Below are positions 3,528 to 14,741 of a stretch of 14,974 bases of DNA, piece by piece (position 1 is the first letter of the stretch; each line of letters starts with the position of its first letter). Under the pieces are notes generated by a model. The model worked only from the letters and a program-made list of their open reading frames with translations. It made no database searches and was not told the origin of the DNA. Source of the stretch: a virus (Duplodnaviria; Heunggongvirae; Uroviricota; Caudoviricetes); the IMG/VR virus record IMGVR_UViG_2711768058_000014; one strand, given 5' to 3'. A program made the position numbers and the translations under genes.

Positions 3528-3827
3528 ATGAAACTTAAATATTCTGGCTTAACTGCCAGTGGCAACACTCACCCTAAATTTACGCGCGGTGATATTTACC
3601 GCGACCAGTACGGCGGCACGGTAATGATTAAGGGCGTGGAAGAACGGCGCGTAACCTACCGCCGTGAAGGCTACGAATATGACTGCGTGATGCCTGTTTA
3701 TCAGTTCCGGCGTGATTTTTCTCTGGTACAGGCAGCGCCCCGCAGTAAACCAACCAGCAGGGAGAAAGCACGCGCCAATATTCAGGAAATAAAAAAGATA
3801 CTTAACGTATTCAGGGGTAAAAAATGA
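3528..3827 (+). CDS. Hypothetical protein (99 aa)
   Basis: ATG 6 nt after the previous stop; its stop overlaps the primase start (ATGA). Confidence 0.6.
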   Translation: MKLKYSGLTASGNTHPKFTRGDIYRDQYGGTVMIKGVEERRVTYRREGYEYDCVMPVYQFRRDFSLVQAAPRSKPTSREKARANIQEIKKILNVFRGKK

Positions 3828-5578
3828 AACTGGCACCGAACGTAAAACAGCAGTCACGCGGCATAAAACACAAAGAAACAGAAGTCATTATTTTTGCGGG
3901 TAGTGATGCCTGGTCACACGCGAAACAATGGCAGGAACATGATGCGCGTATGGCCGGAGATAATGAGCCTCCTGTGTGGCTTGGGGAGCAGCAGCTATCC
4001 GAACTGGATAATCTGCAAATTGTGCCGGAAGGCCGAAAATCAGCACGCATATACAGGGCCGGATATCTTGCGCCAGTAATGATAAAGGCGATTGGCCAGA
4101 AGCTGGCGGCGGCAGGCGTACAGGATGCAAATTTTTACCCTGATGGTATGCACGGTCAGAAGGTGGAGAACTGGCGCGAATATCTGGCCCGTGAGCGCCA
4201 GAATCTTTCTGATGGTCTGGTCATTGAGCTTCCGGTAAAGCAAAAGGCGCAACTTTCGCAGATGGCGGACAGTGAGCGCGCGCAGCTGCTTGCCGATCGC
4301 TTTGATGGCGTTTGCGTACATCCTGAAAGTGAAATCGTTCACGTATGGCGCGGCGGGGTATGGTGTCCGGTCAGCACAATGGAACTTAGCCGCGAAATGG
4401 TGGCGATCTATTCAGAGCACAGGGCCACTTTCAGCAAGCGCGTAATCAATAACGCCGTGGAAGCGTTAAAAGTTATTGCCGAACCAATGGGCGAGCCGTC
4501 CGGCGATTTGCTGCCGTTCGCCAATGGTGCGCTTGACCTGAAAACGGGGGAATTTTCCCCGCACACGCCGGAGAACTGGATCACCACGCACAACGGCATT
4601 GAGTACACGCCACCAGCACCAGGGGAGAACATCCGCGATAACGCGCCAAACTTTCATAAATGGCTTGAGCACGCAGCCGGAAAAGACCCGCGCAAGATGA
4701 TGCGTATATGTGCCGCGCTGTACATGATTATGGCGAACCGGTACGACTGGCAGATGTTTATTGAGGCCACCGGAGATGGCGGGAGCGGTAAAAGTACATT
4801 CACGCACATAGCCAGCCTTCTGGCAGGGAAACAGAACACGGTAAGCGCTGAAATGACGTCGCTTGATGATGCTGGTGGACGTGCGCAGGTTGTCGGGAGT
4901 CGTCTTATCGTCCTGGCTGACCAGCCGAAATATACAGGCGAAGGAACGGGCATCAAGAAAATCACGGGCGGTGACCCCGTGGAAATTAACCCGAAATACG
5001 AAAAGCGTTTCACGGCTGTAATCAGGGCGGTGGTGCTGGCGACCAACAATAACCCGATGATATTCACCGAACGGGCCGGAGGTGTGGCACGTCGTCGCGT
5101 GATTTTCCGTTTCGACAATATCGTCAGTGAGGCCGACAAAGACAGGGAGCTACCGGAAAAGATCGCGGCTGAAATCCCTGTCATTATCCGCCGATTGCTG
5201 GCGAACTTTACCGACCCTGAGAAGGCACGGGCTTTACTACTGGAACAGCGTGACGGTGATGAAGCTCTGGCAATAAAGCAACAGACGGATCCGGTTATTG
5301 AGTTTTGCCAGTTCCTGAATTTTCTGGAGGAAGCACGCGGCCTGATGATGGGCGGCGGTGGCGATTCAGTGAAGTACACGACCAGAAACAGCCTTTACCG
5401 CGTCTATCTGGCGTTTATGGCGTACGCAGGCAGGAGCAAACCGCTAAACGTAAATGACTTTGGCAAGGCTATGAAGCCAGCCGCGAAAGTTTACGGACAT
5501 GAATATATTACGCGGAAAGTTAAGGGAGTAACGCAGACTAACGCAATAACAACAGACGAGTGCGACGCGTTTTTATAA
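3824..5578 (+). CDS. P4-family primase / D5-type NTPase replication initiator (pri-rep)
   Basis: 584 aa; Walker A GDGGSGKST about residue 320 followed by a Walker B-like hydrophobic stretch ending LIVLAD; region resembles the phage/plasmid primase P4 C-terminal domain; iterons immediately downstream. Confidence 0.85.
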   Translation: MKLAPNVKQQSRGIKHKETEVIIFAGSDAWSHAKQWQEHDARMAGDNEPPVWLGEQQLSELDNLQIVPEGRKSARIYRAGYLAPVMIKAIGQKLAAAGVQDANFYPDGMHGQKVENWREYLARERQNLSDGLVIELPVKQKAQLSQMADSERAQLLADRFDGVCVHPESEIVHVWRGGVWCPVSTMELSREMVAIYSEHRATFSKRVINNAVEALKVIAEPMGEPSGDLLPFANGALDLKTGEFSPHTPENWITTHNGIEYTPPAPGENIRDNAPNFHKWLEHAAGKDPRKMMRICAALYMIMANRYDWQMFIEATGDGGSGKSTFTHIASLLAGKQNTVSAEMTSLDDAGGRAQVVGSRLIVLADQPKYTGEGTGIKKITGGDPVEINPKYEKRFTAVIRAVVLATNNNPMIFTERAGGVARRRVIFRFDNIVSEADKDRELPEKIAAEIPVIIRRLLANFTDPEKARALLLEQRDGDEALAIKQQTDPVIEFCQFLNFLEEARGLMMGGGGDSVKYTTRNSLYRVYLAFMAYAGRSKPLNVNDFGKAMKPAAKVYGHEYITRKVKGVTQTNAITTDECDAFL

Positions 5579-5593
5579 TTTTTTGTAATTGCT

Positions 5594-5817
5594 GTCTACC
5601 CTGTCTACCTGAGTAAAGAAAAATACATTTAATTCAGTGCATTAAGTTAGGTAGATAGCCTTTTTTTACTGTCTACCCACTATCTACCCTCTCTACCTGA
5701 TTTTACCTGAATCAGACAGGGAGGTAGACACGGGGTAGATAGTGGATAAAAGCACTCTACCCCGCTGAAAGCCGCGCCATTACTGGTATGAGGGCCACTA
5801 AGGTAGATAAGGTAGAC
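5594..5817. repeat. Replication origin iterons: about 11 copies of heptamer (G/A/C)TCTACC in both orientations, with an AT-rich spacer
   Basis: GTCTACC at 5594, 5603, 5671; ATCTACC 5682; CTCTACC 5691, 5755; inverted GGTAGA(C/T) at 5650, 5723, 5734, 5802, 5811; AT-rich stretch 5620-5670. Confidence 0.7.
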
Positions 5818-5866: not shown

Positions 5867-6145
5867 ATGCACACTTCAGGGAAATTTAATAAATCACTCA
5901 AAAAACGCAGAGACAGAACAGAACCGAAATATCGCGCGTTAGACATGACAGAGCACGCTTTAAAGGTGGCAATCAGAACGATAGACCGCCACGCGGGGGA
6001 AGGATACGCGAAAGCACATCCCGAACTGATAAGCGCATTCATGACCACGACGGCGGCAAATTTTGCCACGCTGACAGAGCGGGAGATTGCCGAAGCGGAA
6101 CAGGTAACAACCATCAACGTTAAAACCGGAGAGGTGGAATCATGA
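5867..6145 (+). CDS. Hypothetical protein (92 aa)
   Basis: GAGGGGG ribosome-binding site; ATGA overlap with the downstream SSB-like gene. Confidence 0.55.
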   Translation: MHTSGKFNKSLKKRRDRTEPKYRALDMTEHALKVAIRTIDRHAGEGYAKAHPELISAFMTTTAANFATLTEREIAEAEQVTTINVKTGEVES

Positions 6146-6552
6146 CAGCACAGATAGCAGCTTACGGGCGGCTGGTGGACGACCCGCAGGTAAAACAGAC
6201 CAGCAAGGGTACACCGATGACGCTGGCGCGTATGGCGGTATCGCTGCCATGTAGTCAGGCGCAGGATGGGCAGGCGACGTTATGGCTATCGGTCATCGCA
6301 TTTGGTAAGCAGGCCGACTTCCTGGCTAAACATCAAAAAGGCGACGTTGCCAGCGTATCCGGCACGATGCAGGTCAGCCAGTGTACCGGACAGAATGGGG
6401 AAACGCGGCAGGGTTATCAGGTTATTGCAGACAGCGTAATCAGTGCCCGTGCGGCACTTCCTGGCGGGAACAGACGCAAAACCACAGGCACACAGGGTAA
6501 TCAGCCACCAGCGGGAGGCGATGACCCTTACGGTGACGGTATTCCGTTCTGA
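6142..6552 (+). CDS. Divergent single-stranded-DNA-binding (SSB)-like protein
   Basis: 136 aa; OB-fold-like N-terminal part (AAYGRLVDDPQVKQT...LWLSVIAFGKQADFLAKH...), Gly/Pro/Gln-rich linker and acidic tail ending DDPYGDGIPF (compare SSB DDDIPF). Confidence 0.7.
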   Translation: MTAQIAAYGRLVDDPQVKQTSKGTPMTLARMAVSLPCSQAQDGQATLWLSVIAFGKQADFLAKHQKGDVASVSGTMQVSQCTGQNGETRQGYQVIADSVISARAALPGGNRRKTTGTQGNQPPAGGDDPYGDGIPF

Positions 6553-6562
6553 GGGGGTGGCG

Positions 6563-6835
6563 ATGGTACATGACCGCATAGCGGAAGAACTCGAGGCGAA
6601 AGGCTTTTACCGGAGGGCGGCGGCGCGATGGGGTGAAGTCATGCTGCTGGTGGAGACAGACAAGGAACGGCATCAGGTTACGATGCGACGGCTGGAATGT
6701 TCCAGGAAGGCACAGAAGCCACCGGAGCCGCCGGATAACTTCGGAGACCTGAGAAAGGCAGTAGATCGCACTTATGCTGAAATGGGTATAGATGGTGTAA
6801 GCGATGAAATATGGCGTAATTACCCAGACAGCTAA
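6563..6835 (+). CDS. PerC-like small transcriptional regulator (tentative)
   Basis: 90 aa from ATG after GAGGGGGTGG; N-terminal MVHDRIAEELEAKGFYRRAAARWGEV recalled as PerC-family-like; not verified. Confidence 0.45.
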   Translation: MVHDRIAEELEAKGFYRRAAARWGEVMLLVETDKERHQVTMRRLECSRKAQKPPEPPDNFGDLRKAVDRTYAEMGIDGVSDEIWRNYPDS

Positions 6836-6840
6836 TCAAC

Positions 6841-6865
6841 AGCCGGAGAAATCCGGCTTTTTTTG
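6841..6865 (+). terminator. Rho-independent terminator (AGCCGGA-gaaa-TCCGGCT then T7)
   Basis: Perfect 7-bp GC-rich stem, 4-nt loop and U-tract directly after the PerC-like gene. Confidence 0.7.
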
Positions 6866-6959
6866 CACCAGTTGAAACGGTATGGTGCATTACCGGGTTT
6901 TCGTCACGGTCAGGCATAGTTACTATCTGAAACAAACAGACACAACAGAGGAAAAAACA

Positions 6960-7184
6960 ATGCCGATGAAATTTGATGAGATATTAAAACAGCGTGATAA
7001 ATACCATGCTGACAACATGGAGACGATGAGCATCAATGATTACCGCGCATTCCTGGAGACGGGCGCACTGATTGAAAAGGATCAGCATGGTTTTGTGAGA
7101 TGTGCTCTATCCGGTGAAATGCTGGCGGTAAATCCTGAACAGATAGATGCATTGATAGAATTTCTGAAAGGGATCAGGGACTGA
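6960..7184 (+). CDS. Hypothetical small protein (74 aa), cassette-like ORF between identical terminators
   Basis: GAGG ribosome-binding site; flanked by 24-bp identical terminator repeats. Confidence 0.5.
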   Translation: MPMKFDEILKQRDKYHADNMETMSINDYRAFLETGALIEKDQHGFVRCALSGEMLAVNPEQIDALIEFLKGIRD

Positions 7185-7194
7185 GCACCCATAC

Positions 7195-7218
7195 AGCCGG
7201 AGAAATCCGGCTTTTTGT
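7195..7218 (+). terminator. Second copy of the same terminator hairpin
   Basis: acagccggagaaatccggcttttt is identical at 6839-6862 and 7193-7216. Confidence 0.65.
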
Positions 7219-7438
7219 CATTTTTTGTAAATTATTTGTTCGTGGTTGTTCCACGTTGTTCACTGAGCGGATCGGCATATTTTACCCGAACTGAATCATG
7301 ATTATTCTCGCCCGTGGTGCCAGGACGCTGGGGCCACTTTTCCGCCTGTTAATGTTCTCGCCAATATTCATTACCAGGCGGGAAAACGATCGGTGCGATT
7401 GCTGATTTCCTTATGAAAAACGGTTGAGTTTTTGCCGC

Positions 7439-7475
7439 GTCCTGGAGTTCCTTACTTAACCCCAGGACTTTTTTT
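7439..7475 (+). terminator. Terminator-like hairpin GTCCTGG-(16 nt)-CCAGGAC plus T7, ending at the capsid ATG
   Basis: 7-bp stem at 7439-7445 and 7462-7468, U-tract 7469-7475, ATG at 7476; no Shine-Dalgarno sequence. Confidence 0.5.
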
Positions 7476-8633
7476 ATGCCGAGAATAATCGAATTACGCC
7501 AGCAGAAAACCGCCATTAAAAATCAGATGCGCGACATGCTGGAGAACGCGGAAAAAGAAAACCGCAGTCTTAACGATGCTGAGGGCGCAAAATTTGACGA
7601 ATTACGCACTAAAGCTGAATCCCTCGATAAAGACATTTCCCGCCTTGAAGCCATTGCAGACGAAGAGCGCAGCAAGCCAGGTAAAAGCAGTCAGACCACT
7701 GACCCCGCAGAACTACGCAACTACATCCTGACAGGTGAAACCCGCGCATTAAGTACAGGCGTTCCCGCTGATGGTGGTTATACCGTTATCCCCGAGCTGA
7801 ACACCGAAATCATGCGAATGCTGGCGGATGAATCCACCATGCGCCGCATCTGTACCGTGAAGAAAATCAGCAGCAACGAGTTTAAGCAGCTTGTTTCCGC
7901 TGGCGGTGCGACCGTTAACCACGGTGAAGAGGGTAAGGCACGCGAACAGACCAGCACCCCGCAGATTAACGAGGTGAGCATTAAGCTGTATCCGGTCTAT
8001 GCGTACCCGCGCACCACACAGGAAATCGTGGATTTTTCCGATGTGGACATCCTTTCATGGCTGACGGGTGAGATTGGCGACACCTTCACGGAAACCGAAG
8101 AAAGCGATCTGGTTGTGGGCGACGGTGACAAAAAAGCAAAAGGTTTTTTATCCGTACCCCGTGCAGAGAAGAACGACAAAGAGCGTGATTTTGGTACGTT
8201 GCAGGTAATTAAACCTTCCGAATCTCTGGCGTGGACATCTGCGGACCCGCTGATCGACCTGAAATTTGCATTACGTAAAAAATACCGCAAAAACGCGGTC
8301 TGGGTGGTTAACTCCACGACGGCGGCAAAACTTCAGAAGGTGAAGAACGCGAACGGTGATTACATCTGGCGCGACCGTTTACAGGCGGGTGATCCTGATA
8401 CGTTGCTGGGCCTTCCGGTCGAATATCTGGAGTTTATGCCTGATAACGTTATTGCCCTGGGTGACTTCAAACGCGGTTACTACATTGTTGATCACGAAAC
8501 AGGTGTTCGCACCAGACCGGACAACCTCACAGAGCCGGGCTTCATCAAAATTTTCACGCAGAAATATTTAGGCGGTGGCGTGGTGGATTCGAACGCGATC
8601 AAGATTCTGGAACTGCCACAAGACGACGATTAA
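7476..8633 (+). CDS. HK97-fold major capsid protein with N-terminal coiled-coil delta (scaffold) domain
   Basis: 385 aa; coiled-coil N-terminus (RQQKTAIKNQMRDMLENAEKE...DKDISRLEAIADEER) then a capsid-like body; size and position next to protease and portal. Confidence 0.9.
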   Translation: MPRIIELRQQKTAIKNQMRDMLENAEKENRSLNDAEGAKFDELRTKAESLDKDISRLEAIADEERSKPGKSSQTTDPAELRNYILTGETRALSTGVPADGGYTVIPELNTEIMRMLADESTMRRICTVKKISSNEFKQLVSAGGATVNHGEEGKAREQTSTPQINEVSIKLYPVYAYPRTTQEIVDFSDVDILSWLTGEIGDTFTETEESDLVVGDGDKKAKGFLSVPRAEKNDKERDFGTLQVIKPSESLAWTSADPLIDLKFALRKKYRKNAVWVVNSTTAAKLQKVKNANGDYIWRDRLQAGDPDTLLGLPVEYLEFMPDNVIALGDFKRGYYIVDHETGVRTRPDNLTEPGFIKIFTQKYLGGGVVDSNAIKILELPQDDD

Positions 8634-14630: not shown

Positions 14631-14741
14631 TATCGACATTAACGCCCCTCATGAATTGGTGTGCTTCCCCCTGGAAAGATGATCCGCCTGTATATTTCTT
14701 GTGTCTATTTGTTCCACGTTGTTTCATACAGTGCACCGAAC

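Follow-up and report, generated by a model that had tools for sequence, protein, structure and literature searches.

The 14,974-nt virus sequence analysed here (IMG/VR record IMGVR_UViG_2711768058_000014, hereafter the window, meaning the whole stretch) is, judged by its gene content, an Escherichia coli capsid-forming phage-inducible chromosomal island (cf-PICI) close to the prototype EcCIEDL933. Between its perC/pchE-like gene and its capsid operon we found a single gene for a 74-amino-acid (74-aa) protein, flanked by two identical 24-nt copies of a predicted transcription terminator. We consider it probable, at about two in three, that this is an old and dispensable satellite gene that is carried as an insulated, terminator-bracketed unit and is lost from islands, or exchanged between them, across the repeats.

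The 24-mer ACAGCCGGAGAAATCCGGCTTTTT occurs exactly twice on the + strand of the window (positions in Table 1). The window holds no further copy at up to three mismatches, and the 24-mer was matched 0 times in 200 dinucleotide-preserving shuffles of the window. The repeat is exactly 24 nt long, because the bordering sequences are unlike on both sides of each copy. Each copy contains a stem of 7 pairs, 5 of them G-C (AGCCGGA/TCCGGCT), with a GAAA loop, and was scored as terminator-like; the sequence after the stem reads TTTTTTT in copy 1 and TTTTTGTCATTTTTT in copy 2. RNA folding gives -13.2 kcal/mol for copy 1 (z = -3.2) and -12.8 kcal/mol for copy 2 (z = -2.6). Copy 1 begins 3 nt past the perC stop codon and copy 2 begins 8 nt past the stop codon of the small open reading frame (ORF). 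Both copies show the features of an intrinsic terminator, a G+C-rich stem-loop and a U-tract located 3' of a stop codon on the coding strand, and both are predicted to terminate transcription. The 330-bp interior that they bracket consists of a leader, a ribosome-binding site and a 74-codon frame. The first-pass annotation of this DNA had reported identical terminator repeats around an ORF with its own ribosome-binding site, and its coordinates, the hairpins and the site all proved exact.

The perfect identity of the two copies in the window is a minority state. The copy 1 hairpin lies 3' of perC in all related islands, where it varies only at the second loop base (A, C or T), and its loop reads GAAA in 31 of 32 junctions. 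Among 19 related HK97-type islands, 14 have a GCAA loop in copy 2 against GAAA in copy 1, and only 4 have identical copies; in EDL933, the two copies differ by 1 nt, which is the loop base. In the lambda-like background described below, copy 2 reads ATAGCCGGAGCAATCCGGCTTTTT, with the GCAA loop in 19 of 19 cases.

The 354-bp unit, made up of one repeat plus the interior, is polymorphic among related islands. A comparison of related islands for presence or absence of the segment had been suggested with the annotation, and it gave a positive result. Islands without the cassette lack exactly these 354 bp, in two backgrounds that differ in the packaging module. E. coli 266917_2 and FORC_043 have only one hairpin after perC, and it leads straight into what stands 3' of copy 2 in the window. 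Pairwise BLAST alignments of the window with cassette-less islands (L002, L004, L048 and others) always stop at 6862 and restart at 7193, and the matching subject segments overlap by 24 nt, the one copy that is shared, so the difference is a clean 354 bp. The unit is also present (L003) or absent (L005) in a second kind of PICI, which has a lambda-like capsid/decoration block. In IMG/VR, 17 HK97-type islands carry the unit and 19 do not, and the junctions in the lambda-like background divide into 19 with and 17 without. The 330-bp interior was found in 539 of 5,426 complete E. coli genomes, at 592 places and at full length every time, and the perC-terminator stretch in 728 genomes at 824 places. 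The capsid upstream region was found in 360 of these genomes and is contiguous with the cassette in 214, indicating that about 4 in 10 HK97-type islands are without it. Cassette-less islands are 97-98% similar to the window over 2.1 kb, compared with 98.2% for the EDL933-type islands that carry the cassette; with these as the best cassette-less relatives, no near-identical island pair that differs only by the cassette was found.

The hairpin is a common joint between modules in this satellite family and not a private duplication around the cassette. We scanned IMG/VR for the 24-mer, allowing A or C in the loop, and for the 78 loci obtained we listed every copy and classified its flanks. The results show that three types of perC 3' end join via the hairpin to the unit carrying the 74-aa gene (the ORF74 unit), to the HK97 module, to the lambda-like module or to a fourth module, 9 of the 12 possible pairings having been observed. 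The same hairpin closes the ORF74 unit, and the lambda-like capsid module ends in another copy of it, AAGGCCGGAGAAATCCGGCTTTTT, 2.27 kb downstream. Similarity between islands ends at 6862/6863 or begins at 7193. Among at least 170 copies, variation occurs only outside the stem or at the second loop base (A, C or T), so that the variants GAAA, GCAA and GUAA all keep the GNRA form, which fits a constraint on the hairpin at the RNA level. Nucleotide diversity is about 0.03 in the hairpin and 0.18-0.26 in its immediate flanks, that is, about six- to eightfold lower in the hairpin. The proposal that the cassette was inserted by duplication of the terminator is therefore not supported as it was put: the hairpin joins three perC ends to four modules and closes the lambda-like module, and the two copies are mostly non-identical.

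Two further observations concern the range of the hairpin. In the PICI type that does not form its own capsids, a four-gene lambda-like capsid/decoration module of 2.27 kb is bracketed by two terminator variants (L003 4505-4528 and 6776-6799; likewise in 30+ other loci), and no island without this module was present in our sample of that type. In addition, the 24-mer lies inside a longer shared repeat (ttttgtcctttc...ttgta) at L046 5204-5227 and 8259-8282 (- strand) and at L040 193-216. L046 is a phage-like metagenomic contig with no relation to the islands, and one of its genes is for a P22 antirepressor-type protein. Its copies of the 24-mer follow small genes; the hairpin is thus not confined to PICIs.

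The 74-aa ORF is a real gene under purifying selection. The same 225-nt coding sequence is annotated by RefSeq in an identical island (WP_001132080.1). A mechanical ORF list gives a longer, 100-aa frame starting at 6882, but the start at 6960 is favoured because remote homologues align from the methionine at 6960. The protein matches phrog_1957, annotated as 'unknown function', with E=7.1e-42, residues 1-74 aligning to positions 1-74 of the 82-position profile. At all 36 loci where it could be recovered from the start codon, the frame is intact, and its 14 nucleotide alleles encode 8 protein variants, with a ratio of nonsynonymous to synonymous polymorphism (pN/pS) of 0.15. An AlphaFold (AF2) model built with the homologue alignment has a predicted local distance difference test score (pLDDT) of 91.6 and consists of three helices, a three-stranded sheet and a C-terminal helix; no fold match to it was found among solved or viral predicted structures. 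Pfam, NCBIfam and PADLOC contain no family for the ORF or for its 18 aligned relatives, and Rfam gives no RNA family within 6400-7600. RefSeq/PGAP places a frameshifted 'trigger factor' pseudogene at 6804-6919, across the perC stop codon and copy 1 (L001 8105-8220; L096 1742-1857), apparently a short spurious frame whose wrong annotation has been propagated.

When 1.8 billion representatives were searched exhaustively with HMMER, 17 further small proteins with 30-43% identity were obtained, which share Y28 and the motifs DHHGF and LSGE.LA.N.EQ.D.LIE.L. A 1383-aa match in this search, P0019, was disregarded as a repeat protein aligned via seven short stretches. In cf-PICI-like elements, including those of Salmonella and Klebsiella, homologues with 35-46% identity occupy the position between replication module and HK97 capsid operon. 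In L084, the homologue is located between the primase and the HK97 capsid gene, and in L087, L091, L094 (a 17-kb circle from Klebsiella) and L095 (Salmonella Senftenberg) it follows a RepA-type helicase and origin iterons, just 5' of the capsid module. The Arsenophonus homologues lie 3' of TerL in 16-kb circular records, and one homologue adjoins an Hcp-Tlde1 pair. Most of the readable contexts of remote homologues are satellite-like. Close relatives occur in E. coli and Shigella only, a single-protein scan of genome contigs returned a Shigella flexneri locus only, and a search of 50,697 phage genomes gave no homologue at the DNA or protein level. The description of the gene as cargo, in the sense of foreign DNA, is at odds with this satellite-restricted, syntenic distribution and with the tree described below, in which the cassette-bearing state is basal. 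Three of the records, L094 (CP018459.1) and L088/L089 (CP123539.1, CP038627.1), are 16-17 kb long and were deposited as plasmids of Klebsiella pneumoniae and Arsenophonus nasoniae; they carry a complete HK97-type head/packaging module and replication genes and, by this gene content, look like circular cf-PICI-like satellites and not plasmids.

The product of the gene has been detected as a protein. Tandem mass tag (TMT) proteomics of exponential, uninduced O157:H7 recorded a 'hypothetical protein EDL933_1785, 9 kDa' in cell extract and supernatant; the authors put it in CP-933C with a PchE-like activator and classed its gene as not in an operon (PMC5120812). We identify the ORF as EDL933_1785 on four grounds: its gi number (667691364) directly follows that of the prophage SSB (667691363) (PMC5120812), the capsid gene of EcCIEDL933 is gene 1786, the distance from the SSB stop to the ORF start with perC unannotated is 407 nt against an upstream intergenic distance of 406 nt given there, and the EDL933 protein is identical to that of the window ORF, at 8.56 kDa. 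The gi numbers of the capsid, protease and portal proteins were not found among the listed rows of the available tables (PMC5120812). This is suggestive, not proof, that the small protein is made while the packaging operon is silent.

The leader upstream of the gene is strongly conserved. Its 3' portion of about 60 nt is nearly invariant in 22 haplotypes, including those in which the ORF is 7% diverged, and diversity is 0.031 in the leader compared with 0.064 at third codon positions of the ORF. The best hexamer pair, TTTTCG(6898)-17-TACTAT(6921), is weak, with 7 of 12 consensus positions. The leader opens with an inverted repeat, TGCACCA(6864)-N12-TGGTGCA(6883), whose fourth pair varies as A-T, G-C or A.C in relatives, and this repeat overlaps a second possible hairpin at 6878-6895 that is followed by GGTTTTCG. 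The overlapping hairpins could form an operator or an attenuator-like switch, for which the covariation support is thin.

We next consider the direction of change. A neighbour-joining tree was built from the first 1.4 kb of the HK97 module at 36 loci, of which 17 carry the cassette and 19 lack it. Islands of both kinds are intermingled on the tree, and under parsimony at least 6 changes are needed and the root carries the cassette. This result and the synteny in distant cf-PICIs speak for an old gene, repeatedly lost or swapped, more than for a single recent insertion. In the mechanism that we propose, perC transcription would stop at copy 1 and that of the 74-aa gene at copy 2, and the gene would thus be insulated between the replication/regulation block and the capsid operon. 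Transcription would come from a weak, non-consensus promoter in the conserved leader, from read-through of copy 1, or from both, so that the protein could be made in uninduced cells, while copy 2 would shield the capsid operon, expected to be induction-dependent, from transcription of the small gene. The direct repeats, 354 bp apart, would permit deletion by replication slippage or short-homology recombination, and the polymorphism would be clean because the unit is bounded by direct repeats that are also found in cassette-less relatives. Homologous recombination at the hairpin, or within the modules on either side, could also transfer the unit between islands in one cell; complete E. coli genomes contain up to five such places each. 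The small, acidic, satellite-specific protein might plausibly bind a helper-phage or host protein.

Several results weigh against this account. The direction of change, loss as opposed to gain, is tentative, as it is drawn from a crude tree of a recombining module and from distant synteny. The IMG/VR loci were chosen for the 24-mer, so junctions with other terminators are under-sampled. In that junction sample, the 3' end of the ORF and the copy 2 variant co-vary perfectly with the downstream module, ORF end-a always occurring with the HK97 module and end-b always with the lambda-like module, and free exchange at copy 2 was not seen; it follows that gene and packaging module have stayed together for some time in each case. 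No repeated terminators were found around the distant homologues, indicating that the repeat architecture is peculiar to the E. coli/Shigella lineage. In the Salmonella element, the homologue is flanked by two unrelated terminators, one on each side, and an alignment of the regions upstream of the distant homologues contains no shared leader motif, those leaders being origin iterons. A promoter scan found no sigma-70 consensus promoter in the leader, and autonomous transcription is therefore unproven. In one strain, the levels of EDL933_1785, the PchE-like protein and SSB were raised jointly (PMC5120812), which fits read-through of copy 1 as well as an own promoter, and is also compatible with differences in copy number; the proteomic signal could moreover come from a spontaneously induced subpopulation. 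The claim that the ORF is independently expressed holds to the extent that its protein is recorded in uninduced O157:H7 (PMC5120812), but the leader offers no promoter better than 7 of 12 consensus positions.

The classical alternative is a moron, that is, a foreign gene with its own promoter and terminator that was inserted once, with duplication of the perC terminator, and that benefits the host from a quiescent island. Much of the evidence is in keeping with it: the presence/absence difference is clean and falls between genes that adjoin in relatives, in HK97-type and lambda-like backgrounds alike; the G+C content of the unit (43.6-43.9%, in the lowest 10% of 225-nt windows) is below that of the flanks (51-58%); a terminator lies downstream of the gene and the leader is strongly conserved; the protein is detected without induction and its gene is classed as non-operon (PMC5120812); and the unit matches the definition quoted in PMC3594210. 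A consensus promoter is absent, however, the terminator is common to many other junctions and its two copies are mostly unlike, the capsid-module tree puts the cassette state at its base and scatters it among the cassette-less islands, with at least 6 changes, and the protein family is restricted to satellites, syntenic in cf-PICI-like elements and not found in the 50,697 phage genomes. We therefore regard a single foreign insertion as unlikely, although it keeps some weight. What stands of the term moron cassette is a discrete, optional, single-gene unit with a downstream terminator and low G+C content, the latter an equivocal sign of foreign acquisition; foreign cargo and a single insertion are not supported, and an own promoter and expression from the repressed island are uncertain.

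It is very unlikely, in our judgement, that the hairpin is primarily a DNA-level recombination site, whether a dedicated module linker or the target of a site-specific recombinase in the manner of an integron attC, with the ORF74 unit as a mobile cassette and termination as a secondary property. The 24-mer does join unrelated sequences, in at least 6 upstream and at least 6 downstream contexts, it is far more conserved (about 0.03) than its flanks (0.18-0.26), and it is also repeated in the unrelated phage-like contig L046. Yet the element is merely an 18-nt stem-loop with a T-run, its variation is limited to the N of the GNRA loop, as for an RNA hairpin, it is always in the sense orientation 3' of a stop codon, and the island encodes a single recombinase, a P4-type tyrosine integrase that has an arm-binding domain and lies at the island end, and has no IntI-like gene. 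Moreover, 24 bp of identity should suffice for slippage or for exchange by a phage recombinase without a dedicated enzyme. A non-functional ORF, in which the 354 bp would be a duplicated leader or attenuator of the capsid operon and the frame would be incidental, is scarcely credible. The alternative leader hairpins at 6864-6889 and 6878-6895, the latter followed by GGTTTTCG, and the lack of a known domain or fold would suit it, but it is already contradicted by the pN/pS of 0.15, the intact frame in 36 of 36 loci, the remote homologues (35-46% identity) with conserved motifs, the pLDDT of 91.6, the peptides seen by mass spectrometry (PMC5120812) and the absence of an Rfam match. A bolder extension of the reading that we prefer, the old and dispensable terminator-bracketed gene, would make the terminator a universal adaptor by which E. 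coli PICIs and cf-PICIs shuffle perC types, the small gene and two kinds of capsid module, perhaps via helper-phage recombinases during co-replication, and the 74-aa protein a new effector on the host or helper. We think this combination doubtful; if the adaptor were universal, satellite evolution would proceed by swapping cassettes at a 24-nt joint dedicated to this purpose.

Table 1. Coordinates of the 74-aa gene, the flanking predicted terminators and neighbouring features in the window
Feature	Position	Strand	Remarks
D5-type primase	3824-5578	+	Pfam
SSB	6142-6552	+	Pfam
perC/pchE-like gene	6563-6835	+	Last gene of the replication/regulation block; Pfam PerC, E=9e-45; RefSeq WP_000233299.1 in the identical island
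Predicted terminator, copy 1	6839-6862	+	Hairpin 6841-6858; T-run on to 6864
Leader	6863-6959	+	97 nt; ribosome-binding site AGAGGA at 6947-6952, 7 nt before the ATG
74-aa gene	6960-7184	+	8.56 kDa, isoelectric point 4.9; phrog_1957 family; EDL933_1785 / WP_001132080.1
Predicted terminator, copy 2	7193-7216	+	Hairpin 7195-7212; tail TTTTTGTCATTTTTT
Capsid operon upstream region	7217-7475	+	Start of the HK97-type packaging module; 94-100% conserved in HK97-type islands with or without the cassette
HK97-fold major capsid gene	7476-8633	+	First gene of the packaging operon; Pfam Phage_capsid, E=2e-61; RefSeq

The assignment of the window to the cf-PICIs follows from its gene content and borders. 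All sizeable genes are on the + strand, in the order P4-type tyrosine integrase, D5-type primase, SSB, PerC, small ORF, HK97 capsid, S78 prohead protease and portal, all but the small ORF being identified by Pfam matches. RefSeq annotation of an identical island in E. coli PEC240 continues with head-closure/connector proteins, HNH, TerS and TerL, and shows that the island interrupts tqsA. As in the cf-PICI architecture described previously (bioRxiv 10.1101/2022.09.08.507074), there is a PICI-type integrase, an alpA-like regulator, replication genes and a complete HK97-type head/packaging module, while tail and lysis genes are absent; the element is about 15 kb long and is bordered by two tqsA halves. 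EcCIEDL933 is 98.2% identical to the window over 5965-8100, 99.7% over 6563-6862 and 98.3% over 7217-7560. Induction of EcCIEDL933 by a helper phage and its packaging into its own small capsids with helper tails have been shown experimentally, and its packaging genes have been mutated (bioRxiv 10.1101/2022.09.08.507074, 10.1101/2025.02.11.637232); AlpA is needed for the induction of these islands (bioRxiv 10.1101/2022.09.08.507074). A term search of these two preprints found no mention of the 74-aa gene, of a function for the island perC, or of the terminators or promoters.

Some other features of these islands were also observed. Near-identical islands occupy different attachment sites, the window island lying in tqsA and EcCIEDL933 between pepT and phoP/purB, the latter according to the gi order in the EDL933 proteomic data. 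Arrays of three TTGTTC motifs with 10-bp phasing occur upstream of the capsid operon (7236-7261, +), in the gap between int and the alpA-like gene (1275-1320, -) and near the right end of the island (14699-14724, +). All are intergenic, with 5 matches compared with 0.03 expected, and an island regulator or the integrase probably binds them. A related motif, AATTATTTGTTCG, is located 5' of the capsid gene in the Klebsiella cf-PICI L094 (4859-4874 and 4916-4931) and also 3' of the ORF74 homologue in L085. The 288-nt gap after the primase gene contains a 16-nt inverted repeat, TACCCACTATCTACCC, at 5674-5689 and 5733-5748, whose arms are 94% complementary and 43 nt apart, and which is a likely replication origin. 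In distant cf-PICIs, the matching gap carries direct iterons just 5' of the ORF74 homologue (L094 3788-3977, L084 4694-4919).

These results identify EDL933_1785 of the prototype cf-PICI as a real, selected, satellite-restricted and dispensable gene, and the direct repeats offer a simple structural reason for the cassette polymorphism. Should the protein act on the helper phage or the host, natural pairs of similar islands with and without the gene could serve as test material, and the meeting of three perC types with four downstream modules at one terminator provides a testable handle on satellite mosaicism. Compared with its closest relative, EcCIEDL933, the window has the same gene order and an identical 74-aa protein encoded just 5' of the capsid gene, which is gene 1786 there; it differs in its location in tqsA and in its identical terminator copies, where those of EDL933 are one loop base apart. 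The joints between modules also recall mosaic lambdoid phages, which have short conserved boundary or linker sequences at module junctions. Like those linkers, the hairpin is a short conserved stretch between non-homologous modules at which genome similarity starts and stops, but here it is a complete predicted intrinsic terminator with a GNRA loop, present 2-3 times per element and bracketing deletable units. The unit resembles an integron cassette in having a single ORF with no recognisable promoter, hairpin-forming repeats at its borders and a variable presence. Integron attC sites, in contrast, are about 57-141 bp long with paired R/L boxes, whereas the present repeat is 24 nt long, with an 18-nt hairpin, and has the look of an RNA terminator; IntI, attI and an array are absent, and the sole recombinase is the P4-type tyrosine integrase with Arm-DNA-bind_3. 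The nearest parallel is found in the morons of lambdoid phages, such as HK97 gene 15 (PMC3594210), which likewise are single small genes between genes that adjoin in relatives, with a factor-independent terminator, low G+C content and a protein detectable without induction. The ORF74 unit differs from them in that it has no recognisable promoter and resides in a phage satellite and not in a phage, in that its family is syntenic in cf-PICI-like satellites, absent from phage genomes and not foreign-looking, and in that the flanking terminator is a family-wide junction element and not part of the insert. The unit is thus one more case of a familiar type, the optional accessory gene bounded by terminators, in a class of satellites described only recently, and leaves current concepts unchanged, as terminator-bounded accessory genes and modular exchange are already established in temperate phages.

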